Positions 11,379 through 58,473 of a stretch of 64,000 nt of DNA are shown here, piece by piece. A program made the position numbers and the translations under genes. The number at the start of each line of letters is the position of its first letter. Within the stretch, counting starts at the first letter, position 1. The DNA lies in the IMG/VR virus record IMGVR_UViG_3300037423_001547, one strand, 5' to 3'. A model generated the notes under the pieces. It had not been told where the DNA came from, did not search any database, and was given only the letters and a program-made list of their open reading frames with translations. Source of the stretch: a virus.

Positions 11379-11390
11379 GTGCAGCTCCGA

Positions 11391-12726: not shown

Positions 12727-12742
12727 TGTAGCACCCCATTGA

Positions 12743-13715: not shown

Positions 13716-13874
13716 ATGAACACCGCCGTCACCATCACCGCGATCATCGCCGCCGTCGCCCTGCTGAACAGCGGCATCACCGCCCTACGCGACATCGCCA
13801 AAGCGAAACACCAGACCGTCACTAAGCACTGCAAGACCTGCACCTGCGACAACAGCAAGGAGTCAGAGGCATGA
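13716..13874 (+). CDS. small membrane protein, 52 aa
   Basis: TM VTITAIIAAVALLNSGI, then KHCKTCTC. Its stop overlaps the epimerase start. Confidence 0.45.
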   Translation: MNTAVTITAIIAAVALLNSGITALRDIAKAKHQTVTKHCKTCTCDNSKESEA

Positions 13875-15562: not shown

Positions 15563-16165
15563 GTGGCCCGCTTGCAGATCCTGCAACTTCCCGAAGGCGC
15601 TGGCGACGACCGGCCGCCGTTCGTCCTCGTCATCGACCAGCACCAGCCGCAGCGCTACGCACTCGGCATCGGCGAGGACGAGCCCGAGATGGTCGACGAG
15701 TTCGCCGGCGTCGCCGAGCAGATCGGGGCCCGTGTCGTGTTGGTGTTCCAAGAGACCGTCGAGATCCCTGCGAATGAGACCGCCGTGCACGCGCAACCCC
15801 TGATGCGCGTCGCGGACTTCGCGGGGCTCGACGAGATCAAGCGGCTGACCGAAGAGCGTGACGAAGCCCGCCTGTGGGCCCGACACGGCTACGAGATCGG
15901 GCAACGCCACTGCGGCTGGTCCGACCACGGCGTCGCACCCGACTGGCTCACCGAAGGTTGGCCGCCCCACTTCGACGACTGCGAGCACTTCAAGCGTGCG
16001 GCGGACTACGACGAGGCGCTCACCCGCGTCCGCAACCTGCCCGAGGAGCCCAAGTTCATGGATGCCCTGCACTCCGACTCCGCTGGCTACCGGCACGGCT
16101 ACCGAGTGGCCATCGGCGATGCCAAGCGCGCCACCCGAGCCCGAGCCGCAGAGGACGGAGGCTGA
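15563..16165 (+). CDS. hypothetical protein, 200 aa
   Basis: GTG preceded by AAGGAGG. Coding bias. No motif recognised. Confidence 0.65.
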   Translation: MARLQILQLPEGAGDDRPPFVLVIDQHQPQRYALGIGEDEPEMVDEFAGVAEQIGARVVLVFQETVEIPANETAVHAQPLMRVADFAGLDEIKRLTEERDEARLWARHGYEIGQRHCGWSDHGVAPDWLTEGWPPHFDDCEHFKRAADYDEALTRVRNLPEEPKFMDALHSDSAGYRHGYRVAIGDAKRATRARAAEDGG

Positions 16166-16166
16166 C

Positions 16167-27300: not shown

Positions 27301-28776
27301 CAGGTTGGCGATCGCTGTACCCAGCTTGTCGGTGGCTGAGGCGCCGGCCTCCTGCGCGGCCGCGAGCGCCTCCGCGGCTTCCTTCGCTGCCTCCTGGGCG
27401 TCGGCGATCTGCCGGGCCCCGTCCTTGGCGGCCTGCGCTGCCGCGGCCTGGGCGTCCGCGACGTCCCGCTGGGCTTTCGCGATCCGCTGCGCCCCGTCTA
27501 CCTGGGCGCGGGCGGCGTCGATCTGGGCGTCCTTCAGCTCCTGGGTCTTGTCCTTGATCTCCTGGTTGGCGTCACGCTCCTTCTCTTTGGCGTCCTTGAC
27601 CTTCTTGCTGCCTTCGACCCCGGCCTCGTTCGCTGCGGTGGTCTGCTCCTGAAGGCGCTGCGTCTCGGTCTGCTGCTCGTTGAGTGCCTGCAGGGCTTTG
27701 TCGTAGGCCAGCTGCGCCTTGTCGATTTCCTCCTGCGTTGCCTTCGAGCCCTTGGCTTTGACCGCGGCCAGCTCCTGCTCGGCGTCCTGCAGGTCCAGCA
27801 CCTTCTGCCGCTGGTCCAACTGGGCGTCGGCGAGCCGGTCGTTCAAGTCCTGGAGATCTTCGGCGGCCTGCTTGCGAGCATCGTTGAGGTCTTCCTGTGC
27901 CCGCTTCGCTGCCCGCTGCGCATCCGCGAGGTCCCGCTCCGCCTGCTCCACCTGTTCGGCCGCCCGCCGGCTGGCGTCGGCCACGTCCTGGACGGTGTTC
28001 TTCAGGTTCTGCTGCGCGTCCTCGATGTCCCGGGCTGCCCTCACGCGGGCCTCGGCAGCGTTGACCTCGGCGTCCTTCACAGCCCGCTGTGCCTTCGCAA
28101 GGGACCGCTGCGCCGACTCCACCCGCCGCGTCGCGTTCTCCGCGGTGGCCGCGCTCTTCGTGGCCGGCGCGAACGCGGCCTTGAAAGCGTCCCCGATCCC
28201 GGACGTGCCGATCTTGATGGCGGCGAACGCGGCACCCAGCGACAGCACCGCCGGCGCGGCCAGCGCTGCGGCCGGACCCATCTGGATGATGGCCTGTCCG
28301 AGCGAAGCCAGCGTGGGGAGTGCGCCAGTGGCTAGGACTTTCAGGTTGGTCAGGGCAGAGGTGAGGCTGCCGATTCCGGCCGAGCTGCCTCCCGCTCCTC
28401 CCACGCTCCCGGTGAGGCGCGAGAGCGCGGACCGGTCGAGGTCGACGCGGACGTTGATGCGGCGGTCGCGGGTGAGGGTGTCGAGATCGGCGCGGGCGCG
28501 GCCGGTGTCGGCGTCTGCGGTGATCCGTGTGGTGCGGGCACGGGTGAGGAGTGCCAGGTCGTCGGCTGCCGCACGGGTGTCGACGTCGGCGGTGATCCGG
28601 GCGGTGCGGTCCCGCATCAAGGCGTCGAGGCGAGCGAGGGCGGACCGGTCGTCGAGTTCGACGCCCACCTTGACGATGTACCGGCGGGACTGGAGCCGCT
28701 GCATGGACCGGTTGAACGAGGTCTCATCGGCCGTGACCTCGACGAAACCCTCAGCGATCCGAAACGCGCCGGCCAT
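24334..28776 (-). CDS. tape measure protein with C-terminal NlpC/P60 peptidase domain, 1480 aa
   Basis: Long Ala/Gln/Lys coiled-coil, hydrophobic Gly/Ala/Leu/Pro-rich middle region, LPYQWAGNGNPSWDCSGF...GHTAG (NlpC/P60 Cys-His). Follows the G/GT chaperones. Confidence 0.95.
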   Translation of the reverse strand: MAGAFRIAEGFVEVTADETSFNRSMQRLQSRRYIVKVGVELDDRSALARLDALMRDRTARITADVDTRAAADDLALLTRARTTRITADADTGRARADLDTLTRDRRINVRVDLDRSALSRLTGSVGGAGGSSAGIGSLTSALTNLKVLATGALPTLASLGQAIIQMGPAAALAAPAVLSLGAAFAAIKIGTSGIGDAFKAAFAPATKSAATAENATRRVESAQRSLAKAQRAVKDAEVNAAEARVRAARDIEDAQQNLKNTVQDVADASRRAAEQVEQAERDLADAQRAAKRAQEDLNDARKQAAEDLQDLNDRLADAQLDQRQKVLDLQDAEQELAAVKAKGSKATQEEIDKAQLAYDKALQALNEQQTETQRLQEQTTAANEAGVEGSKKVKDAKEKERDANQEIKDKTQELKDAQIDAARAQVDGAQRIAKAQRDVADAQAAAAQAAKDGARQIADAQEAAKEAAEALAAAQEAGASATDKLGTAIANLAPNAQAFVNSVLAQRDAWRGLKLDVQNALFQGLGQKFTELSTAVIPSLRAGLVGMASNLNAMATNAANAVIELAKTGQLRKMFQGLNDATSQLTRIPGQIVTALTQISIAASPAFERLTTAAGTAADRISKKLSDAFKSGALEDAINNGVDIAKQFGQLLGDIFGTVKNIFKAASAGGGDALGSLGAVFAELRKITAMPEVQKALTSIFTAVNSIAKLFAGTLGAVIEALLPLLAALAPVVTELAEKFGPVLADLAAALGKALMPIVDALLPIVSDVGDIIVGLVQAVMPLLPPLGELIGAIVEALGPMISAFGAQLVPLIGALTQGLLPVVGALVPIVQQFGQFLGQLAPLFPQLMLAVLPLIPPLSQLTIALLDLALQVLTPLMPLILQLATMLTTVLTSAITTLVPAITTVIGWITTFTKAITDGVKWIVDKFTWLYDVLVGHSIIPDLVHAIIDWFTKLWTKSKEIFNNLRKWVVDTWNNLWNSARSKWDSFWSGLWKALTGAKTSVVNWVSGLRTSVTNTWNGLWNSAVSKVTSVFSTLRGKLSDFKNAFLNGVRAIRDGTGTLFAGIQSKFAAPVKWVVSHVYNSGIRKMWNTIAGKINSKLTLPTISLGFNKGGVVPGTGNTDTVPAMLTPGERILSKQQVAQLGGHRGIDAMLGQDHPTKTGGNPSRQEERRRYQGGTQHYASGGIVGSITSGIGGAIGGAVDWAKDLVIGGLKSAAQKAIAAIVRPLIGRIPGGGVGSLLKGLSNKALDGMLSFLGNEDKKAVGGPAVQRALAWAKTQAGLPYQWAGNGNPSWDCSGFMSAIESVIRGERPHRRWATGAFVGNNGPSGWVRNLNSPFMVGITNSGVGHTAGTIAGVNVESRGGAGVIVGPRARSYRDSLFTSRWGFAPAAKYDSGGLLQPGATMAINRTGRPERVLDARQTAMFEQLVSGRGGGSVTIENITVSGSFDFSSRSARRQAAQELVVEIKEALRTYDRERAR

Positions 28777-32721: not shown

Positions 32722-33636
32722 TCAGCCGACGAGGATGGACGCGCCGTTGGGGTGGCCGTAGGCGAAGCCGCGGCGGGCGCGCATCTTCAGGATCGACTCG
32801 TCCGTCAACGCGCTGAGGCCGTCGCGTCCGTCGATGAACACCGACTCCGGGCCTGAGCGGATACCGAGGAGCATCAGCTCCGGGTTGACGAACGCCATGA
32901 TCGACCGGCCGGTCGGCGCCGAGGTGGCGGTCGCGGCGAGCTTCGCACCCAGCGACCAGCGGATCGGCACGCTGAAGATGGTGTCGGGGGTTCCGGCCGT
33001 GCCCTGGATGAAGATCGGGCGGGACTGGCCGTCGAGGACACCGCGGAGGCTCTTACGGAACGACGGGTGCGCGATGGCGACCATGCTGCCGGGGTCGAAG
33101 TAGTCGCCGGACTCGACGTTGCCGATCGCGGTGGAGAACTCCGCGTAGGTCGGTGCGCCCGAGCTGGCGGCGGTGGTGATGTTCGCGCCACCGGTGTAGG
33201 AGAGGGTCGCGTCGGTGGTGTTCAGCAACTGATACAGCGACGTGAACGGGACCGTCGTACCGTTGCTGGCCGCGCTGACGGCGAGGCTCGCGTTGTCGAT
33301 CATCTTGGCGTAGGACTTGCCCCAGCCCATCATCTTCGACTCGATGACGTTCGCCACCGAGTCATCGATGTCCTCCTCGGCGATACGGACGGCCTTGCCG
33401 AACTTCACCGCGGACAGGAGGACTTCGTCGTTGAGGGAGGTGTCCTCGCCGTAGGTGCCGCCCTTCGCGACGACCGCGACGTCCATGCCCGCGGTGCGGG
33501 GAACGTGCTTGGTGTCGGAGCCCATGGGGATACGGGCGGCGAGGGATTCGACGGCGGAGATCTGGGTGATGGACTGGACGACCTTGGACGTCTCCCACTC
33601 TTCGGGAATCCACGGTTCCATGGTGTTGCGGGCCAC
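32722..33636 (-). CDS. major capsid protein (HK97 fold), 304 aa
   Basis: GTG 33636 follows AGGAGGG. Follows the scaffold gene. Sequence pattern typical of actinophage major capsid proteins. Confidence 0.9.
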   Translation of the reverse strand: MARNTMEPWIPEEWETSKVVQSITQISAVESLAARIPMGSDTKHVPRTAGMDVAVVAKGGTYGEDTSLNDEVLLSAVKFGKAVRIAEEDIDDSVANVIESKMMGWGKSYAKMIDNASLAVSAASNGTTVPFTSLYQLLNTTDATLSYTGGANITTAASSGAPTYAEFSTAIGNVESGDYFDPGSMVAIAHPSFRKSLRGVLDGQSRPIFIQGTAGTPDTIFSVPIRWSLGAKLAATATSAPTGRSIMAFVNPELMLLGIRSGPESVFIDGRDGLSALTDESILKMRARRGFAYGHPNGASILVG

Positions 33637-34546: not shown

Positions 34547-35563
34547 TCATGCGGCGGCCGGGAAGCGGCCGGTCCTGATCGCGGTGCGGGCGCGGGCCTC
34601 GACCGCGGGCAGCAGATCGTCGACGGTGCGCAACAACTCGCGGGCGGCGCGCAGCCGTACCGCACGGGACTCGGACGGGCGGGCGGTGCCGTAAGCGAGG
34701 GAACGGTGTGCCTCCCGCTGCAGTGCCAGCGGGAACGGCACGCCCTCGGTGGTCCACGCGTCGTCCCAGGGGACTGCTCTGCACCTGCAGTGCGCGTGCA
34801 AGGGCGGCCCGTCCACGCCCGGACGGTGCGCACCACGCTGCCGGGGATCCCAGGACAAGCCGCCCGGGAACGGCTCGTCCTTCTTGACGACGCGGCCGGT
34901 GTACGCGCTGCAACGAACGCAGGCATCCGCTTCCGATACCCACACCCTGAGCGGAGCCGCCGCCCGCACCACCGCGTCCAGGCCCTCGTGCACGGCGGTG
35001 TTGATGACCCACGCGATATGCGCACGCACCGCAGGCAGCGCGGCGCGGGCTGCGCCGAGCCCGGCCAGCATGTGCGACCAGCGCGACACCCGGTCCGGAT
35101 GCAGCAAGAACAGTGCACGGTCGCGGCGCTCGGTCACCATCTCCCGGATCCGGCGCGCCTCGTCCCGCAGCGAACGGCTGACGGACGGGACACGCGGTTC
35201 CCGGCGCCGTCGGCCCGACGCGGCTCGAACGAACTCGGTGCCCTGCCGCACCCCCATCGCGAGCGCCGGGCCGAGCCCGTCGGCGAGTGCGGCGGGGGCC
35301 CGGTCGGCGATGCCGGCGAGGAGTCGCTGGACGGCTGCCTTCGCGGTGGCAAGGATCCGGCGCAGCGCGTCAGCCGAGGCAGCCGCATGGTGGGGTCCGC
35401 CGAACGCGCGGGTCCACGCATCGAGGATGCGACGGATCAGCTCCTCGAACGCCCGGTCGGCGCCGCGGAGCGCACGGGCGGCGATCCCGTTCTCCAGGTC
35501 AACGACCTCGCCCGTGTGCTCGTCCTGCACCAGGTTCATGAGGCGGTCGCTGGAGTACGGCAT
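34547..35563 (-). CDS. MuF-like minor capsid / head morphogenesis protein, 338 aa
   Basis: C-terminal WVSEADACVRCSAYTG...PPLHAHCRCRAVPW is the Phage_Mu_F / SPP1 gp7 signature. ATGA overlap with the portal stop. Confidence 0.85.
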   Translation of the reverse strand: MPYSSDRLMNLVQDEHTGEVVDLENGIAARALRGADRAFEELIRRILDAWTRAFGGPHHAAASADALRRILATAKAAVQRLLAGIADRAPAALADGLGPALAMGVRQGTEFVRAASGRRRREPRVPSVSRSLRDEARRIREMVTERRDRALFLLHPDRVSRWSHMLAGLGAARAALPAVRAHIAWVINTAVHEGLDAVVRAAAPLRVWVSEADACVRCSAYTGRVVKKDEPFPGGLSWDPRQRGAHRPGVDGPPLHAHCRCRAVPWDDAWTTEGVPFPLALQREAHRSLAYGTARPSESRAVRLRAARELLRTVDDLLPAVEARARTAIRTGRFPAAA

Positions 35564-37152
35564 CAGCCCTCCTCCTGCACCTGCGCGAGGGCTTCGAGGT
35601 CGTCGATCGCCCCAGACAGCAGTGCGGTGACCTGCTCGCCGGTGATGACCCCGAGCGCGGCCGCAGACCCCAGCTTCTGAGCGGAGTCGGCCAGGGAGGC
35701 GAGGACATCGACACGGCGCTGCAACTCGGCATCATCGGTACCCGCGAGCCACGCGTCGACCTGCTCGGCCCGGTAGCCGGCCTCCATGAGGGCCTGCTTA
35801 CGCGGCACACCAGCATCGATCTTCGCCTTGACGGTCTGCCAGCCTTCGACGCTCGACACGGACCGGGCCGGCACCCAGTCGACGGTTACGACCGGGTTCT
35901 CGACGCCGAGGCGGCGCAGCGCGAACACGAACGCCTCATGCAAGGATGCGCCGTAGCTGGTCTGCCGGTTCTCCACCTTCGAGATGAACGGGCCGTCCTC
36001 CTCGCGGTAGGACTCGCCCGAGCGCTGGCTGGAGGACTGGGGGTCGAACATGCGCAGCGGGGTGTCGGTGATCTGTGCCATCGCCCGAACGTTGAAGTTG
36101 ATCGGGTCGAGGAACACGTCAGGTTGGGCGGCGTCGAACTGCCCGACCTGCTTGAAGCCGCGTAGCAGCAGCATCTCGCCCGGCCCGGCTTTCAGGCTGC
36201 TGTCGTCACCGGAGTCGGAGGGGCCGGTGCCGTTCTCGTTGAGGGGCCAATCGTCGTCGTCGAAGTCGCCGGGTTCCAGATCGCTGGTGTCGGTGTTGGC
36301 GGTCTCGGTGAGCGCGTACCGCTGCGGGAAACCCTGGTAGTCGACGGTACCCATGTGGGTGGCCTGGAGCTTGGTGATGGCGTTCTGCGGGCCGTAGGCG
36401 CCGTAATGCTCAGGACATCCGTAAGGGCGATCGTTCCTGAAGTGGAAGACGGGCTGCTCGCCCCAGTCATGGTCGATGACCCACGACTCAGGGTCGTCCG
36501 GGTCTGCGGGCCAATGGTTCCAGTCGGCCGGCTTGTCGCCTCGGGAGTTCTCTCCGGTGGTCCAGCGTTCGGTGCGGTCGTCGTACAGCAGCTCGGCCCG
36601 CTGGTATCTGCCCTCACACCATCGCTTGATCGTGAAGTCTTTGCGGCGCGGGTTGTCCTCGGCGTAGATGACGCGGACGGTCTGCGGGGAGTTGTAGAAC
36701 ATCTCGACCCGCAGCACGTTGCCCTGCTCGTCCTCGACAGGCAGGACCATCAGGTAGGCGTCGCCGTACTCGCCGGCCCGGCGGAACAGGTCGGGGAGTT
36801 CGAGGTTGAGCTGGTTGTCCTTCCAGATTTTGGAGATGAGGGTGTTCGTGGCTGGGTCGGGGCTGGTGATCGAGGCGACCTTGAGCCGGTTGGTGACCGC
36901 GTTGACGGGGGTTTTGGCGAAGTTGAGGTCGAAGTCGATGTGGTGGGCGCGGAGGGCGCGGCGGATCCGGGTCGACGTGAAGACTTCGGGGACTTTGCCG
37001 TCGTAGTAGATCTGGGCCTGGTCGTAGCCGGGGCGGGCTTCCTTCAGCTCTTCGATTCCGAGCATGAGGTCGGCGCGTGACTCGTCCACCAGTGCGACCT
37101 CCCACCCTTGACCTTTGAATCGAAGGATAGACGGTCGATCGAGTCGCGTCAC
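35563..37152 (-). CDS. portal protein, 508-529 aa
   Basis: Size and synteny (terL-portal-MuF). The start is probably GTG 37089 (GGGAGG 8 nt upstream) rather than GTG 37152. Confidence 0.9.
   Translation of the reverse strand: MTRLDRPSILRFKGQGWEVALVDESRADLMLGIEELKEARPGYDQAQIYYDGKVPEVFTSTRIRRALRAHHIDFDLNFAKTPVNAVTNRLKVASITSPDPATNTLISKIWKDNQLNLELPDLFRRAGEYGDAYLMVLPVEDEQGNVLRVEMFYNSPQTVRVIYAEDNPRRKDFTIKRWCEGRYQRAELLYDDRTERWTTGENSRGDKPADWNHWPADPDDPESWVIDHDWGEQPVFHFRNDRPYGCPEHYGAYGPQNAITKLQATHMGTVDYQGFPQRYALTETANTDTSDLEPGDFDDDDWPLNENGTGPSDSGDDSSLKAGPGEMLLLRGFKQVGQFDAAQPDVFLDPINFNVRAMAQITDTPLRMFDPQSSSQRSGESYREEDGPFISKVENRQTSYGASLHEAFVFALRRLGVENPVVTVDWVPARSVSSVEGWQTVKAKIDAGVPRKQALMEAGYRAEQVDAWLAGTDDAELQRRVDVLASLADSAQKLGSAAALGVITGEQVTALLSGAIDDLEALAQVQEEG
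37112..37126 (-). promoter_or_regulatory. late-gene motif copy (minus strand CCTTCGATTCAAAGG)
   Basis: Lies 22 nt upstream of the RBS-preceded GTG 37089. Confidence 0.5.
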
Positions 37153-37191: not shown

Positions 37192-38799
37192 CTACGCATA
37201 CGTGGCGGCCCGAGCCGACGGCGCCGCCTTCTTCACCGGCGGCATGAATCGCCGGACGGCCGACCCCACCGCATCGACCATGTCGTCGTTCGGGCCCTTG
37301 GGGAACGTGCACATCTGCTGCTCCAACTCCGGCAGCCTGCGCGCGTGAAACACCCGGCCACGCTGATACAGCCCGAGCAACCCCTCAGCCCGCGTGAACT
37401 TCGGCTCGCTCTGGTGAACCGTCTTCACCCTCACCGGCAAGCTGTGGAGGATCGCCTGCCACGCGTCGCCGCCCTGGTTGACCTCGATCAGGACCAGTCC
37501 GATCCGCGGGAACTCATCCAGCAACGCCAGCACCCGCTCCCTCAGCTCCGGGCCCGGGCGGACCTTAAGCGCCATCGCCGCGTGCACGGTGCACCGCTTA
37601 TGCTGCGCCGACCACGACACCACGGCCAGCCCGGTGAAGTCGGACGCCCTCTTGGCGGTGGTGGCCGGGTCGATGCTGAGCATCATGTGGGTAATCGGGT
37701 CGGCGCCGGTGACCGGGTCGACGCGGTCTTCGATGTTCAGGGCGCCGTTGAGGCGTTCCAGTGCGGTCGGCGGTGTCGGGTAGCGGAAGTCGTCCGGTGT
37801 CCACAGTGCGCCGTCCGCGGCCAGCGGATCGTTCGCCATGTTCTTCGCATAAGACCTGGTGTGCCGTATCTCGGTCAGGTACCCGATGGGCCACTTCGCC
37901 GGCCACATGGACCGCTCCGTGCCGTCGGGGCGTTCCACGATCGGCAGGCTGTGGTGCGCGCGGATCCCCTCGTCCTGGATCCACTGGGCGACGTTGACAC
38001 CCTTCGCGGCCCGGACCAGCTGGTGGATGATGCTGCCCGGCATGGTGACGGTCCCGCAGATCGCGACGCGGGCGTAGATGTTCAGCGGCAGGATTGCGTC
38101 CAGCAGGGTGGTGAGTCGCTTCGAGGCGAGGGCGGCGGAGTAGCTGCTCTCGTCGGGCTCCACATCGTCGCAGAGAAGCAGGTCAGGTCGCTTCTCCTCC
38201 ACCTTCATACCGAGGGCACTCGAATCGATGCCGTGAGCTGCGAAGATGAACCCGCTCTTGGCGATGTACATGCTGTGCGTGTCCGCGATGTTCTGCCCGG
38301 ACGGCCGTTTCGCCGCGGTGCATAGGTCTGGGAAGTCACGGCGCAGCAAGGCGTTACCGTCCAGCTCCCGCTTGAACGTGCTGAGATGCCGTTCCGCCTG
38401 GGTGGCGGCCGATGCGAATGCTGCTGCGAACTTCACGTGCCCGTGCGCGGCAGCCCACATCGGCAGGATCAGGAACCACCACGTCGTCTTGCCGGTGTTG
38501 CGGGGCGCGATCCAGGCGTCGCGCTCCTCGGCCGGCCCGGTGGGCGGTCGTACCCAGCGGCGGCCGGCCCTGCACCAGTCGAGGTGGGCGTCACCGAAGG
38601 TGATCCGACCTTCCTCGTCTTTGAGATGGTGCCTGAGGTAAACGAGGGCGAACAGCAGGGGATCGAGCCGGGTGAGGGTGCGCCGGCCTTCGGGGTCGGC
38701 GAGGAGCCGCGCGTCGAACTGGGCGAGGTAGGCGTCCAGGTTGAAGGTCTCTGCGTCGAGGCCTTCGAGGTAGCCGACCGTGCGGGTTGCGGTCGTCAC
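37192..38799 (-). CDS. terL: terminase large subunit, 535 aa
   Basis: Walker A-like APRNTGKTTW, ATPase and nuclease halves, synteny. GTG 38799 lies 4 nt after the upstream stop. ORF-track start 38901 overlaps the previous gene. Confidence 0.9.
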   Translation of the reverse strand: MTTATRTVGYLEGLDAETFNLDAYLAQFDARLLADPEGRRTLTRLDPLLFALVYLRHHLKDEEGRITFGDAHLDWCRAGRRWVRPPTGPAEERDAWIAPRNTGKTTWWFLILPMWAAAHGHVKFAAAFASAATQAERHLSTFKRELDGNALLRRDFPDLCTAAKRPSGQNIADTHSMYIAKSGFIFAAHGIDSSALGMKVEEKRPDLLLCDDVEPDESSYSAALASKRLTTLLDAILPLNIYARVAICGTVTMPGSIIHQLVRAAKGVNVAQWIQDEGIRAHHSLPIVERPDGTERSMWPAKWPIGYLTEIRHTRSYAKNMANDPLAADGALWTPDDFRYPTPPTALERLNGALNIEDRVDPVTGADPITHMMLSIDPATTAKRASDFTGLAVVSWSAQHKRCTVHAAMALKVRPGPELRERVLALLDEFPRIGLVLIEVNQGGDAWQAILHSLPVRVKTVHQSEPKFTRAEGLLGLYQRGRVFHARRLPELEQQMCTFPKGPNDDMVDAVGSAVRRFMPPVKKAAPSARAATYA

Positions 38800-38803
38800 C
38801 GGG

Positions 38804-39043
38804 TCAGCCCTCGTCGTCGCGGCTGCTGACGTAGCCGCCGTTCTCGATCTCCAAGGCGGCCGTGAGCATGCCGAGCGTGGTGATCCAGTCGAGGGATTCA
38901 CTGGCCGCCTTGACGAGGCTGACGACCCCGTCAGCCTTTACGATCTTCAGGATGACGTGGGCGTCGGTCGGCATGTCACCCTCGTCCAGGTCGACGGTGA
39001 CGCCGAGCGCGTCGAGGAGCTGCCCGATCTTCTGGTCAGGCAT
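38804..39043 (-). CDS. hypothetical protein between terS and terL, 79 aa
   Basis: Complete ORF overlapping the terS end by 8 nt. Confidence 0.55.
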   Translation of the reverse strand: MPDQKIGQLLDALGVTVDLDEGDMPTDAHVILKIVKADGVVSLVKAASESLDWITTLGMLTAALEIENGGYVSSRDDEG

Positions 39044-44103: not shown

Positions 44104-44237
44104 GTCGTTCCCCTCACTTCGTCGTGCTGATATAGACAAGGTAGTTCCGTAGCCCTAACCTTGTCAATATGAATGCAGCGAAGTTCCTGGAGGGTGTGGC
44201 GCTAGACTTTGTCTACGCCACATCGACAGGGGGAACC

Positions 44238-44480
44238 ATGGCCGACCCGAACGCCGACTACTGGACCGTCGCCGACATCGCCGAACACTGGGGGGTCACC
44301 GCGCAGACGATCCGCACCTACCGCTCACGCAAGCGCGGTGAACTGCCCGAGCCCGACAACGTCTTCGGCCGCTCCCCGGTCTGGCGGCCGGCCACCATCA
44401 TCAACTTCCAGCGGCCCGGCCAAGGCGCACGGACCGACCTGCCGGAGCGCCCGGTGAGCAGCGAGGAGAAGACCGGATGA
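44238..44480 (+). CDS. MerR/excisionase-type (HTH_17-like) DNA-binding protein, 80 aa
   Basis: YWTVADIAEHWGVTAQTIRTYRSR....LPEPD.....SPVWRPATI pattern. Plus strand, divergent from the SWIM gene. Confidence 0.7.
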   Translation: MADPNADYWTVADIAEHWGVTAQTIRTYRSRKRGELPEPDNVFGRSPVWRPATIINFQRPGQGARTDLPERPVSSEEKTG

Positions 44481-44728
44481 ACAGTGTTGGCATCCAGCTC
44501 GTCGGCGGCCCGGCCGACGGCAGGCTCCTCGTGATCCCCGGCGATCCGGCGAACCCGCCCCGCGTCTATGACGGGCTGATCTATGAGATGGGCAAGCGCA
44601 GGCTGATCTATCGGCGCGCGGACGGCCGGGGTGTCCTGGGAAGGCGGACGCCGGGCGCCGAGGGACTGCCGTGGCGCTACCAGTACGACGGCGACCGCCC
44701 GGTGCGCCCGGACGAGGAGCCCACATGA
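44477..44728 (+). CDS. hypothetical protein, 83 aa
   Basis: ATGA overlap with the previous gene. Confidence 0.55.
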   Translation: MNSVGIQLVGGPADGRLLVIPGDPANPPRVYDGLIYEMGKRRLIYRRADGRGVLGRRTPGAEGLPWRYQYDGDRPVRPDEEPT

Positions 44729-45126
44729 CCGCCCTCGCCGTCCGTGCCCTGCCGCACTGTCCGAACCCGCGCCGTATCCCCGCATCGGACCGCTGGACCG
44801 GTGACTACATCGCCGAAGTCTGCGACTGCCCGCGCGACCACCCCCACCACTGGCGCGTCCACTGGGTCCACCAGGACGGCCGCCCCATGCACTGCCCGTG
44901 CGGGCTGAGGCAGCGCGTGAACGCCCCGCCGGACGACTACCTGATCACCATGAACGACGGCTACGTCTGCGCCGCGTGCGTGCCACGCGTGCCATCCACG
45001 GTCCGATTGCAGGGAACACCGCTGGTAGCTGATCTGCCCTGCTGCTACTGCCCGGGAACAGCTCGGGCAGGCAGCGGATACGGGATCGACGGGCCGTACC
45101 ACCCCGAGCTGGAGCCCACCGCATGA
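44725..45126 (+). CDS. Cys/His-rich hypothetical protein, 133 aa
   Basis: ATGA overlap. CDCPRDHPHH, HCPCG, CAAC and CCYC clusters. Confidence 0.55.
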   Translation: MTALAVRALPHCPNPRRIPASDRWTGDYIAEVCDCPRDHPHHWRVHWVHQDGRPMHCPCGLRQRVNAPPDDYLITMNDGYVCAACVPRVPSTVRLQGTPLVADLPCCYCPGTARAGSGYGIDGPYHPELEPTA

Positions 45127-45175: not shown

Positions 45176-45592
45176 CTAGCTGCCGAGACTCTCCACCATC
45201 TTCAGCTTGTCGAACCGACCATCCTTGCCCGTCCAACCCAACCCATCAAGCGCCTTCGCCATCAGCAGCACGGTGTAGTCATCCTCCGAAAGCGACTCGC
45301 ACGCCCCCGGCCGGCCCTTCCCGCCCTCCTTGGTCTTCTTGCCGAGCGTGTCGAACGCGTCGTTGGCCACGCCCTCGTACCCGGACCGGACCATGCCGGC
45401 GAGCGTCTTGTCGAAGGCATCGACCCGCTTCTTCGCCTCGCCGACGGTCGGCTTGTCTGCGGTATCGCCTCCGGTCCGCTCGGTGAGCGCGGCGGCGCAG
45501 TCCGTGGCTTTCTCGTCGCCGGACTTCGAGCAGCCGGCCGCCCCTACGGCGAGCAGGGCGGCGGCGAGCAGGGCGGTGGTGGTGTAGCGCAT
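45176..45592 (-). CDS. secreted lipoprotein, 138 aa
   Basis: Signal peptide with lipobox LLAVGAAG-C. ATG 45592. The ORF-track 253-aa version is unlikely. Confidence 0.8.
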   Translation of the reverse strand: MRYTTTALLAAALLAVGAAGCSKSGDEKATDCAAALTERTGGDTADKPTVGEAKKRVDAFDKTLAGMVRSGYEGVANDAFDTLGKKTKEGGKGRPGACESLSEDDYTVLLMAKALDGLGWTGKDGRFDKLKMVESLGS

Positions 45593-45686: not shown

Positions 45687-45723
45687 GAGAGCCCCACCGG
45701 ACGGGGAGGCCAGTGGGGCTCTC
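45687..45723 (-). terminator. 11-bp perfect hairpin GAGAGCCCCAC-N15-GTGGGGCTCTC
   Basis: Lies in the 360-bp non-coding stretch between the translocase and lipoprotein genes. Confidence 0.55.
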
Positions 45724-45859
45724 TCAGGGGGTAGCCGTGGCGCTCGAAACCCGACCACGAACCCAGTGTCCCAACACTGTCAAACGGTGTCCGCGGGATC
45801 CGGTTGCGCGTCCCTGGCTTCCGGGGCGGCGGAACAGGGCGGCCGATCCTCCCGGAACC

Positions 45860-45940
45860 GTGAACACGGGGGTTGACCTGCATGGATGCGTGTTCACCGC
45901 GCAGGGCGGGGTGTTCAACGGCGGCCGCGCTGAACACCCC
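45860..45940. repeat. cluster of GTGAACAC / GTGTTCA(C) half-sites
   Basis: GTGAACAC 45860-45867; GTGTTCAC 45890-45897; perfect 10-bp inverted repeat GGGGTGTTCA-N13-TGAACACCCC at 45908-45940. Directly downstream of the translocase stop. Confidence 0.5.
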
Positions 45941-45953
45941 GTGAGCGGGCCTC

Positions 45954-47846
45954 TCAGAGGCTCTTGATGATGGCGTTGACCTTCCCGAGGGACACCCCGG
46001 TCGCCTCCGCCGTAGCGCGCTGCGTCGCCCCCGGGTTGGCCGTGAGGAACGCCCGCACCTTGTCTTCGGGGGACGCGCCGAACGCTGGCGTGGCCGTGTC
46101 CACGGCGGCGGCCGGCAGCTCCCGGACCGCGTTGTCGTCCATGGTCCAGGTGCGGATCAGGACGGGACCGTAGCCCTTGAGGAAGCCGTGGCCGCGGAAT
46201 GCTCGGTCGTCGGGGATCGACTGGGGTTCGTAGTAGGCGCAGTCGTCCAGTGCGACCTGGGCGTGGGTGCCGTTCGCGACGCGCAGGGAGAAGCGTTGCA
46301 GCATGTTCGGGGCGATCATCTTGTGAATGCCGGGCGCATCACCGCTGGTCACGCCGTACTGGGTCTGCCACCACAGCACCACGCCACGGGACCGGCCGAG
46401 CGATGACAGCTCGATCAGCTTCTGCAGAAGGTCGTCCTTCCCCTTCTTCAACCCCGCGATCACCGCGAGGATGACCTGACCCTCGTCGATGTTCACGGTG
46501 AGCTGCCGGCCGTCCCATACGGACAGGCCGCGGGCTCGCATCTCGCTCTTTCGGCTGGTCATCACGTCGTGCGCGTACTCGATCGCGTCGACGACCTCGG
46601 GCGTGTCGGTGGCGCAGCGGCAGATCCCGTCCCACACGTTGGCCTCCTCGCCCTTGCCGTCGATCAGGATCAGCTCGCCACGCAGGTGCGCGTGCGCCAT
46701 CAACGGGCGTGTCGACCACGACTTGCCAGTACCGGACGCGCCGGTGATCAGGAGCCGCTCGTCGAACCTGATGAGGACTTCCTCACCGGTCTCCGTGTCC
46801 GTGCCGAGGGACACCATCAGGCCTTCCGGCGGCGGCATGACGTCCGCTGTCCACGCTGTCCGGACACCGGTCGCGGCATGGCTGGACACGAACTTGACCA
46901 GCAGTTCGTTCGTGACACGGCCCTCGGAGACGATGAACCGGCCGTCGGCACGCATCGCGGTCTGGATCTTGTCCCAGCCTGTCCGGGCTTCCTTCCTGGA
47001 CAGCTTGGACAGGCCGACGGTGGCCTTCCACCCGGACAAGGTCGACGTGACCTCGCAGGTCAGCACCTGCTCGCTGAACACCTGCCAGAACGCTTCACGG
47101 AGCGCACGTTCCTCACCCGTCGATCCGCCAAGGTAAGGGGCCTGTTCCTGCTGCATGAGGGTCTGCAGCCGGGCCAGGTCGAGGGCGGTCTTCACCTGGG
47201 ACTGTGCTGCGATGGCGTCACCGCGGAACGTCTCGGTACGCGTCCGGGCCTGCTTGAGCCGGATGTCTTCCCGCTTCTCTTCGAGGTCAAGGCGGTGCCC
47301 GGCATTGTTGCGCTCATACATCAGCTTGAAGCCGAGCGCGGCCGCCGTCCCGCCGAGCCACGCGAAGAAGTCGACCCAGCCGCTTCCGGTGGCTGCGGTG
47401 GTCCAGGTGATCCCACCGACCGCGAGGCCGAGGACGACGGAGTTGAAGCCCTGCGGCCACGATCGGTTCATGCCGGCGATCCCGGCGATGGTGCCGATGA
47501 CGGTGGCCGTACCGCCGCAGAGGGACGGCCAAAGAGGGCCGTAGGCGTGGACGGCGATGTTCGCGCAGCCGGTGACCAGGGTTGGTACGGCGACAGTCCA
47601 GTAGCTGGTCTTCGCAGTGTCGGACTTCGCCCAGTCGGGGACCTTGCCGGCGTGTTGGGCGGGCTCGGGTGCGGCGTCCTTGACGACCCGTTGAGCGGCC
47701 ACCAGCGCAGCCGTGAGGGCTTGGATGTCGAGTTCCCCCACGCGGGGTGCGGCAGGCGCTCCAGCGGCCTCCAGGGGGCTGGCGTGCCCGTCCACGAAGT
47801 CATCCCACGCCGGATCAGGGGCACCCGGGAACGGGTCGACAGCCAT
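45954..47846 (-). CDS. FtsK/SpoIIIE-family dsDNA translocase with TraB-like architecture, 630 aa
   Basis: N-terminal TM helices, Walker A GASGTGKSW, Walker B-like LTVNIDEGQ, C-terminal wHTH ATQRATAEATGVSLGKVNAIIKSL. GAGGAG RBS. Confidence 0.9.
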   Translation of the reverse strand: MAVDPFPGAPDPAWDDFVDGHASPLEAAGAPAAPRVGELDIQALTAALVAAQRVVKDAAPEPAQHAGKVPDWAKSDTAKTSYWTVAVPTLVTGCANIAVHAYGPLWPSLCGGTATVIGTIAGIAGMNRSWPQGFNSVVLGLAVGGITWTTAATGSGWVDFFAWLGGTAAALGFKLMYERNNAGHRLDLEEKREDIRLKQARTRTETFRGDAIAAQSQVKTALDLARLQTLMQQEQAPYLGGSTGEERALREAFWQVFSEQVLTCEVTSTLSGWKATVGLSKLSRKEARTGWDKIQTAMRADGRFIVSEGRVTNELLVKFVSSHAATGVRTAWTADVMPPPEGLMVSLGTDTETGEEVLIRFDERLLITGASGTGKSWSTRPLMAHAHLRGELILIDGKGEEANVWDGICRCATDTPEVVDAIEYAHDVMTSRKSEMRARGLSVWDGRQLTVNIDEGQVILAVIAGLKKGKDDLLQKLIELSSLGRSRGVVLWWQTQYGVTSGDAPGIHKMIAPNMLQRFSLRVANGTHAQVALDDCAYYEPQSIPDDRAFRGHGFLKGYGPVLIRTWTMDDNAVRELPAAAVDTATPAFGASPEDKVRAFLTANPGATQRATAEATGVSLGKVNAIIKSL

Positions 47847-47917
47847 TGCAGTGTGCTCCTCAGATGGCGGGTGCGGGCGGGCCCGAGACGCGGTAGTCCC
47901 GGGCCGGCAGGGGTGGG

Positions 47918-48862
47918 TTAGCTGTACGGGTTGCCGATCCGCTTGGCGGTGCGGCGGATACTGTCGGCGTTCATGTCCGGGCGGAGCCGTGTGGCTGTCC
48001 GGACCAGGTCGTCGTGACGGACACCGTTGTCCGAGAGTGCCCGGACGAGGGCGGCCGGCCCGGACGCCTTGTCGGCAAGCGCCCGGAGAGCGTCCGAGTA
48101 TGTGTCCGTGCCGGTCAGGACGTTGTTCGCGTCTGCTGTCCGGATGCTGCCGGATACCTCATCCGGACTGTCTGGGGACGTGTCCGGGCGGTCTCCGGAC
48201 AGCATGTCCAGGGTGTCCGCCCCGACCTCCGCGACGGTGTCCGAAGGGGCCGGCCGGGCCGCGCTGACGGTGATGCCGAGAGGGGATCGGCGGGACAGCT
48301 CGTCCCGCTTCCGGATCCGCTCCAACCCGACCTGGAAGGTGACGTCGTCCCGCTCCAGGGCGACCTTCCCCTGAGCGCGGATCAGGGCGACCTCCTCGGC
48401 AGCCTCCCGCTCGATCTCCGCCGCGCGCCGCCGGGAGATGTATTCGCTGTCCCGGATGACGGCGTTGATCTCCGCCTCCTGCTCTGCGGTGAGTGCGGTC
48501 GGATCCCGGCGGAGCCTGATGTCACCAACCCATGCGATCTTCGCGACGATCGGGGGGAGGGCGCCGGCGAACGCGGCGGCTGGGGTGATGTGCCAGCCGT
48601 GCCAGGCGAGGAGGGTGCAGGCGACGCCGAGGGTGATCCACTCGACGACCTCGATGATGCGGCCGCCGATGCCCTTGTAGGACAGGTATTGGACTACGCC
48701 CCACAGGCCGTCGACGGAGACGGCGGCGAGGAGTCCCCACGCGCCGGACTGCACCAGGTCGGTGATGGACCATCCGGTCCAGCCGAGGGATACGAGGGTG
48801 AACAGGATGGCGACGGGCGTGAGGGCGGTCGTGCGGGGCGCGGGTGCGTCGGCGGTCTTCAC
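47918..48862 (-). CDS. polytopic membrane protein (DUF2637-like N-half) with a charged C-terminal half, 314 aa
   Basis: Four hydrophobic helices in the first 125 aa, then a coiled-coil and charged tail. GTG follows GGAGA. Family assignment is from memory. Confidence 0.6.
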   Translation of the reverse strand: MKTADAPAPRTTALTPVAILFTLVSLGWTGWSITDLVQSGAWGLLAAVSVDGLWGVVQYLSYKGIGGRIIEVVEWITLGVACTLLAWHGWHITPAAAFAGALPPIVAKIAWVGDIRLRRDPTALTAEQEAEINAVIRDSEYISRRRAAEIEREAAEEVALIRAQGKVALERDDVTFQVGLERIRKRDELSRRSPLGITVSAARPAPSDTVAEVGADTLDMLSGDRPDTSPDSPDEVSGSIRTADANNVLTGTDTYSDALRALADKASGPAALVRALSDNGVRHDDLVRTATRLRPDMNADSIRRTAKRIGNPYS

Positions 48863-48883
48863 GGTCGTCTCCGGGTGGGTGGG

Positions 48884-49123
48884 TCAGTGGATGTGGGGTC
48901 GGTGGGTGAGGGCGTTATGGGCGATCAGGGCGAGGCCGACAACGAGGGCGGTGGCGCCGAGGTGCTGGACGGCGGCCGTGGCGACGCCTTCGACGATGGC
49001 GAGGAGCAGGCCGGTGACGAGTTGGGCGAGGTGGCGGGTGCCGTCGGGGTGCATGGCGGCGAGGATGATCAGGCTGGCGTAGAGCAGGTTGCGGATGAGG
49101 TGGTCGGGGCGGCGGCGTCGCAT
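48884..49123 (-). CDS. small two-TM membrane protein, 79 aa
   Basis: ATG 49123 follows CAGGAGG. Hydrophobic LLYASLIILAA and LVTGLLLAIV...LVVGLALIA. Confidence 0.55.
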   Translation of the reverse strand: MRRRRPDHLIRNLLYASLIILAAMHPDGTRHLAQLVTGLLLAIVEGVATAAVQHLGATALVVGLALIAHNALTHRPHIH

Positions 49124-49377
49124 CGGAGCCTCCTGAGCGGGTCGGGTGGGTGGCTGGCGGTTCTCCTTGGCACCCCCGCGGGTCGGGTGCCGCGGGCAGC
49201 CGTCAGTCGTCGGGGTTGTCGGCTTGGCGGCAGCCTTCGCTGCAGTAGGGGTGTCCGCCGGGGGCGCCACAGTTGATGCATTCGTTGTCCACGGGCTACT
49301 TCTCCTCAGGGTTTGGGCCGGGCTGGCGGGACGGGAGGGGACCGGTCTGGCCGCCAGCCCGGCGGCATGGGGTGGGG

Positions 49378-49545: not shown

Positions 49546-49645
49546 GCGGTCATCTCTCCTGGTAGGCAGGCGGATGGCTGGCCCGACGGGAGGTGCAACT
49601 CCCGCCGGGCCGTTCTGTTGGTGCCGGAATCAAAGTACCGACCTT

Positions 49646-49661
49646 GTTGCCACGTGGCAAC
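49646..49661. promoter_or_regulatory. 16-bp perfect palindrome GTTGCCACGTGGCAAC
   Basis: Lies in the divergent region 50 nt upstream of the plus-strand HTH gene at 49711. Overlaps a TTGCCA -35-like hexamer. Confidence 0.5.
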
Positions 49662-49710
49662 TAGGTCAGACAGGATGGTGTCCATGGGCGAGGCCGAAGG
49701 AGGGCCGGAC

Positions 49711-49950
49711 ATGGTGTCGTTCCGCGAACTCGCGCGAAGACTGGTAGCCGATGGGATCGTTGAGACGATCTCGCATCAGCGGTTGTCGAAGATCTCGCGC
49801 GACGATCCGGACTTCCCGCCCGTGGTGAAGGTCGGCAGTTCGAATGCTGTCGACTATCGGCTTGCCGTGCCGTACTTCCGAAGCCGGGTGACGCGGCCCG
49901 GGTGGCGGACGGACGTGAAGGGCAAGCCGCCGAGAGCAGAGTCGGAGTAG
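49711..49950 (+). CDS. excisionase/MerR-like small DNA-binding protein, 79 aa
   Basis: ATG follows GAAGGAGGG. VSFRELARRLVADGIVETISHQRLSKISRDDPDFPPVV pattern. Isolated plus-strand gene. Confidence 0.6.
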   Translation: MVSFRELARRLVADGIVETISHQRLSKISRDDPDFPPVVKVGSSNAVDYRLAVPYFRSRVTRPGWRTDVKGKPPRAESE

Positions 49951-56643: not shown

Positions 56644-58473
56644 TCAGGCGGCGTCGTGGGGTGCGTCGGGGTGGCCGTGGTTGGGCCTGTCGGGGTGGCT
56701 GCCGGTTTCGGGGTCGCAGCCGAGGTGGGTGTCGTAGCCGCGGTCGAGTCGGTAGCCGGTGAGGGGTTCGGTGCAGACGGTGCAGCAGCGTTCTGAGTGC
56801 TGCGCTGTTCCCGGTGTTCCCTCCCCGTTCCCCCTCTTCGAGGGGGGAACGTGGGGAACGGGGGGCGTTCCCGGTGTTTCCCCGAGCGTTCCCGGAAACG
56901 TCTGACCTGCGGTTTCTTCTGTTCCCGGTGTGTTCCGGGAAACGTTTCCGGGAAACGTGGGTTGGGGAACGTCGGGGAAACGTTGCTGGGAAACGTCGAT
57001 ACCGGGCTTTTCGGACCGCGCCTTGCGGTGCTTCACAGCCTCCGCGATCTTTTCGTTGCGGGCGGAGATCTGAAGTTCTGCCAGCTTTGCGCGGACCTGC
57101 CGGTTGCCCGCGTCGTCGGGGACTCCTGCACGGTCCAGGGCGGCGATGATGTGCTCGACGGTGCCGGGGACGGCCGCCATGCCGGCGTCCTGGCCGGGCT
57201 CGGTGTCGTAGGTCATTAGGACGTGCCGGGTGCCGCCCAACGCCCAGTTGTCGCCGTCACGCTGGGACTGGCGCAGCAGGGTGAAGGAGTCGGGGCCGAT
57301 GCCGGTGCGGGTGTGGGTGCGCTTCAGTACGAGGGTGCCGCCGCCCTGGTAGGTCAGCTCCCATACGTGGTCGACGTCCTGCGTCTTTGCTGAGGAGCCC
57401 CGGCCGCCGCGCTCTTTGTCCTTGCCGAAGTGGTCCAGGCGCACGCTCGCGATCCGGTCCCGCTTCAATGGCAGCAGGGTGTGCCGGTACAGCGACAGCC
57501 ACGTATCGGCGTCGTTCTCGGGTCCGCCGATGAATCGGGACACGGTGTCGATGACGACGAGTTCGGCTCCGGTGGCCTTCACCAGGGCCATGAGGTCGGC
57601 GCCGCCGCCGGCTGTGTCGAGGGGGCGGACGGGTGGGAAGGATGCGTACCTCAGTTCGCCCATGCGGAGCGGGCCTGCGCCGAAGGACAGGAACCGTTCC
57701 TGTACCTGTTCCTGTCCGTTTTCGGCGTCGAGGTACAGCACCTTCACGGGGTCCTGTGCGGTGTCGCCGAGGAACGGCTGGCCGGTGGCCATCCGCCACA
57801 TCCACTCTTGCGTGAAGAGGGACTTGCCGGCCTTGCCGTCGCCGACGAGGGTGATCTGCTGGCCGGGGCCCATGAGTTTGCCGGGCAGGAGCTGGATGGC
57901 GCCGAAGTCGGTCGCGAAGAACGTGCCCCAGTTCAGGAGAGAGGCGACGAGGTGGGCGGGTCCGCGACCGGTGTTCTCGCGGAGCTGTTCGCCCTGTTGG
58001 AACTCGGCGACTATGGCGGCGAGTTCGTCACCGCTGACGCCGCGGTCGATGGCGGCTTTCAGCGCGGTGGAGTGGGCGTCGTAGCGGCGTTGCCGCGCGG
58101 TTTCGGCGATGCGTTCGGCGAACGCGGCGGCCATCATCGACGGGATGGTCTCGTTGCCGAGCCGGTAGATGAGGTTGCCGCCCTCGACGCGGTGGAGCTG
58201 CCCCTGCTTTTCGATCTCAGCGCGCACGAGGGCCGGGTGGCATTCCTGGCCGGTGGCGTACAGGCCGGCGGCGATGTCCCAGATGAGCTGGTGCGCGGGC
58301 CGGTACAAGTCGTCGCGGCTGATGAGGAGGGAGCATTCCTCGTAGGCGAGGCGGGAGTGCATGACGACGCCGACGACGTACTGTTCGGCCTCGATGTCGT
58401 GGGGAGGCGGGTTTCGGTTGAGGCCGTCCTGGTCCGCCGTGTCGCGCGGGCTCATGTGGCGGACGTTCTCCAC
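56644..58473 (-). CDS. replicative helicase-like protein: DnaB N-terminal domain + RecA/RepA-type ATPase + wHTH/zinc C-terminus, 609 aa
   Basis: PPHDIEAEQYVVGVVM (DnaB-N), Walker A GDGKAGKS, Walker B LVVIDTVSRF. GTG 58473 lies 7 nt after GAGGAG. Confidence 0.85.
   Translation of the reverse strand: MENVRHMSPRDTADQDGLNRNPPPHDIEAEQYVVGVVMHSRLAYEECSLLISRDDLYRPAHQLIWDIAAGLYATGQECHPALVRAEIEKQGQLHRVEGGNLIYRLGNETIPSMMAAAFAERIAETARQRRYDAHSTALKAAIDRGVSGDELAAIVAEFQQGEQLRENTGRGPAHLVASLLNWGTFFATDFGAIQLLPGKLMGPGQQITLVGDGKAGKSLFTQEWMWRMATGQPFLGDTAQDPVKVLYLDAENGQEQVQERFLSFGAGPLRMGELRYASFPPVRPLDTAGGGADLMALVKATGAELVVIDTVSRFIGGPENDADTWLSLYRHTLLPLKRDRIASVRLDHFGKDKERGGRGSSAKTQDVDHVWELTYQGGGTLVLKRTHTRTGIGPDSFTLLRQSQRDGDNWALGGTRHVLMTYDTEPGQDAGMAAVPGTVEHIIAALDRAGVPDDAGNRQVRAKLAELQISARNEKIAEAVKHRKARSEKPGIDVSQQRFPDVPQPTFPGNVSRNTPGTEETAGQTFPGTLGETPGTPPVPHVPPSKRGNGEGTPGTAQHSERCCTVCTEPLTGYRLDRGYDTHLGCDPETGSHPDRPNHGHPDAPHDAA
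56807..56996. repeat. iteron-like array inside the 3' part of the helicase gene
   Basis: GTTCCCGGTGT at 56807, 56867 and 56921. GGG(G/A)AACGT at 56845, 56937, 56950, 56964, 56974 and 56988 (five copies about 12-14 bp apart). 17-bp palindrome ACGTTTCCGGGAAACGT at 56942-56958. Confidence 0.7.

Follow-up and report, generated by a model that had tools for sequence, protein, structure and literature searches.

In the model developed for the Streptomyces plasmids pSVH1 and pIJ101, hexamers of the translocase TraB bind the 8-bp repeats of the clt locus through their C terminus and pump double-stranded DNA (dsDNA), SpdB2 makes pores and interacts with TraB (C terminus), and Spd79 binds the TraB N terminus (PMC4447253). 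A comparable set of genes was analyzed in a stretch of 64,000 nucleotides from the virus record IMGVR_UViG_3300037423_001547, referred to at its full length as the window. It encodes a 630-residue TraB/Tra-type protein, a 314-residue SpdB-like protein and a 79-residue protein with two transmembrane (TM) helices. The reading that we favor, and to which we give about an even chance, is that of a conjugation-derived dsDNA translocation module that would be a stable part of a temperate phage and would move the phage's own replicated dsDNA across hyphal walls, free of virions.

Several elements of this reading have precedents. FtsK-like genes are a recurrent annotation of Streptomyces phages, with no function tested (PMC11536984, PMC13587820, bioRxiv 10.1101/2024.02.16.580700), SpdB2 homologues on actinophages were pointed out in 2015, and the plasmid-phage pZL12 is reported to require a tra gene for its conjugal transfer (cited in PMC3583192). 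With these already known, the idea of virion-free movement, put forward in an earlier note on this DNA, is less novel than that note implied. A literature search returned no paper placing phage FtsK-like proteins in the TraB lineage, none on a compact unit of small TM, SpdB and TraB genes in an integrase-bearing tailed phage, and none proposing repeats matched to a helix-turn-helix (HTH).

The TraB/Tra-type protein and its relatives

The genes of the unit and the domains of its largest product are listed below; AICE stands for actinomycete integrative and conjugative element.

45954..47846, minus strand: predicted TraB/Tra-family FtsK-like dsDNA translocase, 630 residues (phrog_17958, identity to plasmid/AICE Tra, PDB profile, Foldseek)
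47319..47621, minus strand: N-terminal putative membrane domain, residues 76-176 (AlphaFold helices, hydropathy)
46122..46817, minus strand: RecA-like motor with Walker A and Walker B, residues 344-575 (AlphaFold, conserved catalytic residues)
45957..46070, minus strand: C-terminal three-helix HTH, residues 593-630, recognition helix SLGKVNAIIK (Pfam HTH_24, AlphaFold)
47918..48862, minus strand: predicted SpdB-family (SpdB_N) four-TM protein, 314 residues (PF27080 on homologues, hhalign to pIJ101 SpdB)
48884..49123, minus strand: two-TM protein, 79 residues, partner of the SpdB-like gene (13 clusters; a copy in the related locus L038)

The three open reading frames (ORFs) are real genes and lie on the minus strand exactly where the earlier note had placed them. 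Third-position GC of the 630- and 314-residue ORFs (0.87-0.89) is in the range usual for coding DNA of high GC content, JGI gene calling yielded the same three genes on several independent metagenome contigs, and homologous clusters number 178, 93 and 13 for the 630-, 314- and 79-residue proteins, respectively. The start of the 79-residue gene lies inside a longer mechanical ORF.

Both motifs quoted in the earlier note are present in the 630-residue protein, Walker A (GASGTGKSW) at residues 369-377 and Walker B (LTVNIDEGQ) at residues 449-457, and G369, S371, G372, G374, K375, D454 and E455 were unchanged in 39 of 39 family members. In the Pfam search, FtsK_SpoIIIE reached 22.1 bits, under the cut-off of 24, FtsK_4TM and FtsK_gamma gave no match, and HTH_24 was matched at residues 601-630 (23.8 bits, cut-off 21.9, E 3.2e-5); the 'FtsK/SpoIIIE-like' family phrog_17958 matched at 1.3e-23. 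The AlphaFold model (mean pLDDT 79, motor mostly about 90 or more) contains four N-terminal helices (residues 76-102, 105-128, 132-153 and 157-231, the last one long), a small alpha/beta domain between the long helix and the RecA-like core, and three HTH helices (593-603, 609-616 and 620-629). Of the N-terminal TM helices claimed earlier, the helices themselves were recovered, and the stretch over residues ~76-176 is weakly hydrophobic, with peaks of 1.2-1.3 on the Kyte-Doolittle scale, a hydropathy measure and not a dedicated TM predictor. Of the claimed winged HTH, the HTH is supported and no wing is visible, as the chain ends after the third helix.

Among solved structures, the family profile matched the FtsK motor best (2IUU, 5e-10), with TcpA of the Clostridium perfringens plasmid pCW3 also among the best relatives; a single-sequence phmmer search of the PDB returned noise only, so that the family profile was needed. 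Foldseek with the model gave 4.6e-16 for TcpA and 5e-14 for FtsK. TcpA, the best structural match, is an FtsK-like conjugation ATPase with 17-18% identity that works in a relaxase-based single-stranded DNA system and has no C-terminal HTH, unlike the window protein. In a set of 1.84 billion proteins, the N-terminal 315 residues were matched by just 18 cluster representatives, of which 15 have 570-670 residues, the full TraB-like size. With the TraB/Tra (KilA) proteins of Streptomyces plasmids and AICEs, the protein has in common the P-loop motor, the C-terminal HTH, the N-terminal putative membrane region, a length of ~600-650 residues, an adjacent spdB-type gene and short repeats after the gene; the window differs in its tailed temperate phage carrier, a separate small N-terminal family and the lack of a GntR Kor. 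Judged by sequence, the 630-residue protein is a homologue of the TraB/Tra-type FtsK-like translocases. Identity as a packaging ATPase was ruled out, as the phage has its own large terminase (TerL) and the match to phrog_2666 is weak and partial (residues 359-498).

Outside phages, the nearest detectable relatives of the 630-residue protein are the Tra proteins of AICEs and small plasmids, not chromosomal FtsK, in agreement with the TraB/AICE-type identity proposed in the earlier note. The motor shares 55-68% identity with Tra of Streptomyces AICEs and pIJ101-like small plasmids, including Tra of an 8.7-kb S. californicus plasmid (59% over residues 316-578), where tra stands between a GntR regulator gene and a small gene followed by a DUF2637 gene, in the pIJ101 order korA/tra/spd, and a 615-residue Tra within a typical AICE (56%). 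The Tra protein P0053 is encoded in a textbook AICE, together with a GntR regulator, small proteins, a Prim-Pol replicase, an excisionase-like HTH_17 protein and a tyrosine integrase. Identity to pIJ101 Tra was 27% (E 1e-19). With the motor as query, bit scores were 327-397 for AICE/plasmid Tra and 77 for pIJ101 Tra; chromosomal FtsK/SpoIIIE/SffA proteins share the ATPase superfamily and fold, but E. coli FtsK reached only 37 bits, compared to more than 300 for AICE Tra. In a large protein database, the relatives fell into two tiers, one of about 40 full-length proteins, mostly metagenomic, and one of hundreds of motor matches (55-68%), P0053 among them and some with the HTH, from Streptomyces chromosomes and small plasmids. 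A scan of genome contigs with the full-length protein found only two loci, both motor-only and of AICE/plasmid type.

Relatives were also found in 20 Streptomyces phages of the phage collection, with the gene labeled FtsK- or SpoIIIE-like in 19 of the 20 records. The best of them is Mischief19 gp79 (46% identity over 89% of the length), which, like Satis gp143 and TP1604 gp71 (PHROG 17958, 1358), belongs to the same protein family as the window protein. In these phages, the gene is listed without function and stands alone or, in the Satis group, 18 kb from an SpdB-like gene, whereas the window has a compact 79-residue/SpdB/TraB unit with a candidate clt.

In a bootstrapped neighbor-joining tree on 258 motor columns, the window clade (bootstrap 100) joined the AICE/plasmid clade (bootstrap 100), with the join itself at 58%. 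Other phage types branched beside these two clades and the Satis type outside them, the TP1604 type grouped with pIJ101 and pTSC1 Tra (bootstrap 100), and the 764-residue FtsK-like protein of pSAM1 formed the outermost Streptomyces branch. This interleaving of phage and conjugative-element proteins points to repeated exchange. The chimeric protein P0010 (L038 6822-8747), in which a window-type N-terminal domain is combined with a TP1604/pIJ101-type motor and HTH and which is 44% identical to pIJ101 Tra, suggests recombination between phage and plasmid translocases at the level of domains.

These relationships bear on the alternative that the motor serves processing or segregation of the phage genome within one cell lineage, for example by clearing or partitioning at closing septa, delivery into prespores (a carrier state) or resolution of concatemers or dimers. 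Such a role would suit an FtsK-type fold with a membrane anchor, encoded between the replication and packaging modules, and a part 'during replication' has been guessed in the literature (PMC11536984). We consider it quite unlikely, as the nearest relatives are conjugative Tra and not septal FtsK, the FtsK_4TM and FtsK_gamma domains are missing with FtsK_SpoIIIE below threshold, a serine-integrase lysogen needs no separate segregation, and a dedicated SpdB-type spread protein would be hard to explain.

Spd-like partners, gene order and repeats

The following features flank the three genes.

45858..45941: four copies of (G/C)GTGTTCA(C/A) in two inverted pairs, 13-96 bp after the TraB stop codon, candidate clt
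45764..45783, minus strand: box TTGACAG-N6-GACACTG, promoter-like -35 element for the next gene (conservation)
49675..49950, plus strand: divergent small protein, 91 residues, possible regulator at the Kor/TraR position, assigned with low confidence (JGI call)

The 314-residue protein has four N-terminal TM peaks at residues 12-110, followed by a hydrophilic tail, according to hydropathy. PF27080 (SpdB_N) is precomputed on many of its homologues, and hhalign of the family profile with pIJ101 SpdB gave a probability of 95.9% (E 5e-9, 142 columns); the SpdB_N assignment rests on these homologues and on hhalign, PF27080 being absent from the Pfam set used to score the window protein. Pairwise BLASTP with pIJ101 SpdB (26% identity) and with the S. 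californicus DUF2637 protein was non-significant. The DUF2637-like build proposed in the earlier note was not borne out, with no Pfam match to DUF2637 (PF10935) in the protein or in 36 homologues and SpdB_N found instead. The protein is a true SpdB homologue of the SpdB_N family. It shares with SpdB/SpdB2 of pIJ101 and pSVH1 the four N-terminal TM helices, the hydrophilic tail and the same direction as traB (as in pSVH1), and the alignment with pIJ101 SpdB covers only the N-terminal ~140 residues. It is also 30-32% identical to a gene in the pSAM1 transfer operon. Its closest homologues (68-71%) lie in prophage-like regions of Streptomyces sp. B21-083 (L016) and S. scabiei (L018/L019), and in S. 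scabiei two large proteins without annotation (683 and 737 residues) are encoded after the SpdB-like gene. All seven GenBank phages with an SpdB-like homologue, members of one phage group, also carry a TraB-like gene.

The second Spd-like partner suggested earlier, the 79-residue protein, has no detectable link to plasmid Spd proteins. It gave no family match, and tblastn against all PLSDB plasmids and GenBank phages returned nothing relevant. To Spd79 of pSVH1 it is alike in size, two TM helices and position only, the sequences not having been compared. In L038, the gene for a 69%-identical copy of 78 residues immediately precedes those for an SpdB_N and a TraB-like protein, so that the whole arrangement is the same.

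The order in the window, a divergent small regulator-like gene followed by genes for the small TM, SpdB-like and TraB-like proteins, mirrors that of the pSVH1 operon traR<->spdB3-spd79-spdB2-orf108-traB (PMC4447253). A four-TM protein with a hydrophilic tail was encoded upstream of TraB in all members of the window subclade with upstream DNA examined. This protein is of SpdB_N type in the window, L035/L036 and L038, with 35% identity for L035/L036 and 31% for L038, of DUF2637 type (89.7 bits) in L027, whose TraB is 86% identical to that of the window, and of a third, unclassified four-TM type in L025 and L037; the 355-residue protein of L025 showed no relationship to the SpdB profile. Non-orthologous replacement at a fixed upstream position argues for functional coupling. 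The module sits between the replication and packaging modules, among early/middle lytic genes and in the direction of lytic transcription, and its position is constant in several phages with different terminases. A recent AICE insertion was ruled out by this conserved position and by the lack of a composition shift, the GC content of the TraB-like gene being the same as in the rest of the genome.

The repeat cluster after the TraB-like gene contains 4 of the 11 GTGTTCA sites of the window, for which the whole-window chance expectation is 4.4; a density of four or more 7-mer copies per 100 bp is reached at only two other sites of the window. Three related phages with the same recognition helix (SLGKVN.I.K) keep the GTGTTCA element. 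Elsewhere, other repeats are paired with other helices: TGGGCCA with SRTSVQRARK (L036) and PRATLQRALK (Mischief19), GCGCAC with PESTLRKALK (L010-12) and GGATCG with PEGSAQRLIEQVRK (L038); CCGGCC repeats were found in L014. The cluster is a candidate clt, with predicted TraB recognition repeats, and resembles the known layout of clt (PMC4447253, PMC3583192), although the 8-bp repeats of plasmid clt are direct and those of the window form inverted pairs.

The TTGACAG-N6-GACACTG box is invariant in the window, L025 and L027 and is also present in L036 and L038, although the gene that follows differs. It is probably a promoter or operator common to these phages, and a conserved hairpin lies just past it (window 45687-45723). 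A scan of the region with promoter and terminator consensus sequences returned no promoter and one irrelevant terminator-like site.

Candidate function of the unit

For the translocation of phage DNA, we infer expression, localization, DNA binding and transfer from the biology of pSVH1 and pIJ101. The genes of the module would probably be expressed after infection or induction, as suggested by their placement in the lytic direction and the lack of a GntR-type Kor repressor. TraB hexamers would insert into the membrane at hyphal cross-walls or contact sites, and the C-terminal HTH would load the motor onto replicated phage DNA at the GTGTTCA repeats. Driven by ATP hydrolysis, the motor would then pump unprocessed dsDNA into the next compartment or hypha by way of a complex in membrane and wall, made with the SpdB-like and 79-residue proteins. 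The infection or the excised prophage might in this way spread without virions, as a phage counterpart of intramycelial plasmid spreading. A wider version, held tentatively and rated somewhat below even, is that of a phage movement system, in which TraB/Spd sets with interchangeable HTH-clt pairs would pump replicated phage dsDNA in naked form through cross-walls and perhaps also from one mycelium to another.

Several observations weigh against this proposal. The tree has E. coli FtsK alone as outgroup and was computed without Streptomyces FtsK, SffA, and the Tra proteins of pSVH1 and pSAM2. Exact k-mer enrichment of the downstream repeats was moderate (background rank 0.006-0.17 per locus, relative to mostly coding DNA). 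The test failed on the degenerate copies of L025 and L027, and L026 lacks downstream repeats altogether. The inverted pairs could equally combine a terminator hairpin with an operator that serves the promoter-like box, ~75 bp farther downstream, and with the HTH adjacent to the repeats, one recombination event swaps both, whether they are functionally linked or not. In the prophage-like regions L016 and L018/L019, no TraB-like gene lies within 10 kb of the SpdB-like gene, and in Mischief19 and five IMG/VR contigs (L010-L014) a lone TraB-like gene stands on the strand opposite to its neighbors with no Spd-like gene nearby. No GntR-type Kor repressor was found in the region, and the divergent 91-residue gene has no Pfam match.

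The missing repressor also enters a different explanation, in which captured conjugation genes manipulate the host and do not move phage DNA, TraB and Spd proteins being 'kil' functions that slow the growth of recipient mycelium (pocks). They might arrest septation or development in the infected hyphae, or interfere with or mobilize resident plasmids and AICEs. Unregulated traB is toxic and pocks depend on Spd proteins (PMC4447253), the module without its usual Kor lies among early/middle lytic genes, and FtsK-like genes are loosely tied to host development in phage papers (PMC13587820). However, conservation extends over the entire ATPase active site and the DNA-binding HTH, and the type of HTH co-varies with the adjacent repeats on the phage's own DNA, which argues for a cis-acting DNA substrate on the phage and not for toxicity alone; we regard host manipulation as unlikely.

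The lone, often reverse-oriented gene of other phages would also fit a superinfection exclusion or defense gene, or a functionless mosaic passenger from an AICE. The weak PADLOC match to mad8 (4e-6), which covers the P-loop region only, and the mosaic nature of the gene, with domain swaps such as P0010, point the same way. This explanation appears highly improbable, since the position of the module is kept across phages with different terminases, the catalytic residues are invariant, the GC content is like that of the rest of the genome and PADLOC found no other defense components adjacent.

Phage carrier, neighboring features and implications

The genes that characterize the carrier of the proposed translocation module are the following.

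37192-38901: large terminase, TerL (phrog_38, 7.8e-70)
35563-37152: portal
32722-33636: major head protein
24334-28776: tape measure, 1480 residues
20213-23122: minor tail protein
11691-12734: amidase endolysin
1622-3262, minus strand: large serine recombinase (integrase; Resolvase and Recombinase domains)

The carrier is a temperate Streptomyces siphophage with a complete set of structural genes; the serine recombinase, together with a 153-residue HTH_3 repressor facing a small Cro-like gene, indicates that it is temperate. Further products of the window are a DnaB-type helicase and a DNA methyltransferase; its GC content ranges from 65 to 72%, and nearly all genes lie on the minus strand. 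The gap between positions 64000 and 1 is bridged by an overlapping metagenome contig with 3,568 additional bases, giving a circular map of ~67.6 kb, of which the window covers 64.0 kb. The complete tailed-phage genome described in the earlier note is thus complete in its structural genes and nearly but not fully complete in length. Contigs from sibling JGI metagenomes (Ga0395900_0000279, Ga0395902_0000267 and Ga0395906_0000155; 62.7, 77.1 and 117.9 kb) carry identical genes and are circular permutations or longer than one unit, the 117.9-kb contig exceeding the genome. The phage was also assembled in several Logan runs, and a megablast search of 50,697 phage records with the region gave no match, so that it is not a catalogued phage.

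The combination of phage structural genes and a Tra/Spd locus on one replicon is shared with pZL12, pSLE1 and pSAM1, circular Streptomyces replicons of 85-90 kb. These elements are plasmids, with ParAB partitioning reported for pZL12 and pSLE1, whereas the window phage (~67.6 kb) combines a serine integrase with a repressor/Cro-type switch. Next to its phage genes and tra-like module, a Pfam scan of the window except for 60.1-63.6 kb (~3.5 kb) found this integrase and the repressor instead of Par genes. In pSAM1 of S. ambofaciens (L020, NZ_CP012383.1, record 491-12664; 89.7 kb), an operon of GntR, spdB-like and FtsK-like (764 residues) genes lies directly upstream of the terminase gene, its FtsK-like protein being only distantly related to that of the window. 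pSAM1 thus resembles the plasmid-phage pZL12 (PMC4487206, PMC3583192). About ten other Streptomyces plasmids of 85-94 kb match the pSAM1-type SpdB-like protein and may be pZL12-type plasmid-phages.

Further features were found at the borders of the module.

49640..49667: 28-bp palindrome with arms GACCTAGTTGCCAC and GTGGCAACAAGGTC (14 nt each, 93% complementary, no spacer), in the divergent intergenic region, candidate operator
45176..45592, minus strand: predicted lipoprotein, 138 residues, with signal peptide and AAGC lipobox, next gene downstream (sequence, hydropathy)

Upstream of the module, L038 has an 86-residue reverse-oriented gene that is HTH-like by eye only, with no formal comparison with the 91-residue protein. 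A 29-residue CxxC mini-ORF (49203-49292) is unrelated to the 31-residue ORF at the equivalent site of L038, and a hairpin with a perfect 13-bp stem after a 55-residue ORF (window 49317-49363) is a candidate terminator or attenuator for the module. Downstream, the 138-residue predicted lipoprotein gave no family match and is not conserved in relatives except for a weak match in L025; its membership in the module is uncertain. Three small opposite-strand genes (window 44169-45126, plus strand; 103, 83 and 133 residues) separate the module from a DUF6011-to-terminase block, the 103-residue protein having weak HTH_23/HTH_17 matches, and similar reverse-strand gene islands occupy the same place in L025 and L038.

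Elsewhere in the window, more than 15 short iterons (ACGTTTCCC / GGGAAC(A/G)) lie on the minus strand at 56800-57000, inside the low-complexity part of the DnaB-type helicase gene, and are probably the replication origin of the phage. CGTCGAG occurs four times within 100 bp (3401-3520) just upstream of the serine integrase gene, possibly as attP or a regulatory site. A 558-residue NAD-dependent sugar epimerase (13871-15547, plus strand) is split by an intein (LAGLIDADG_3 and Intein_splicing matches) and adjoins a glycosyltransferase (15858-17180), on the strand opposite to the tail and lysis genes. The two look like sugar-modifying accessory genes, and the prophage-like region L018 of S. scabiei also encodes an epimerase of similar kind.

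The analysis turns a vague 'FtsK-like' label into testable objects: a three-gene unit, a candidate site with four copies of GTGTTCA, and natural swaps of HTH and repeats that predict specificity. Streptomyces are multicellular, and phage adsorption to them is thought to be limited by developmental stage. If the translocation of phage DNA proves true, one adsorption event could seed a whole multicellular host, a bacterial analogue of plant-virus movement proteins, and the view of plaque growth, containment of infection and spread of lysogens in mycelial bacteria would be altered. Phages, AICEs and plasmids of mycelial bacteria would share one exchangeable DNA-spreading toolkit. A prophage could then act like an AICE, which would blur the boundary between prophages and the integrative and conjugative elements of actinomycetes and open a virion-independent route for horizontal gene transfer.

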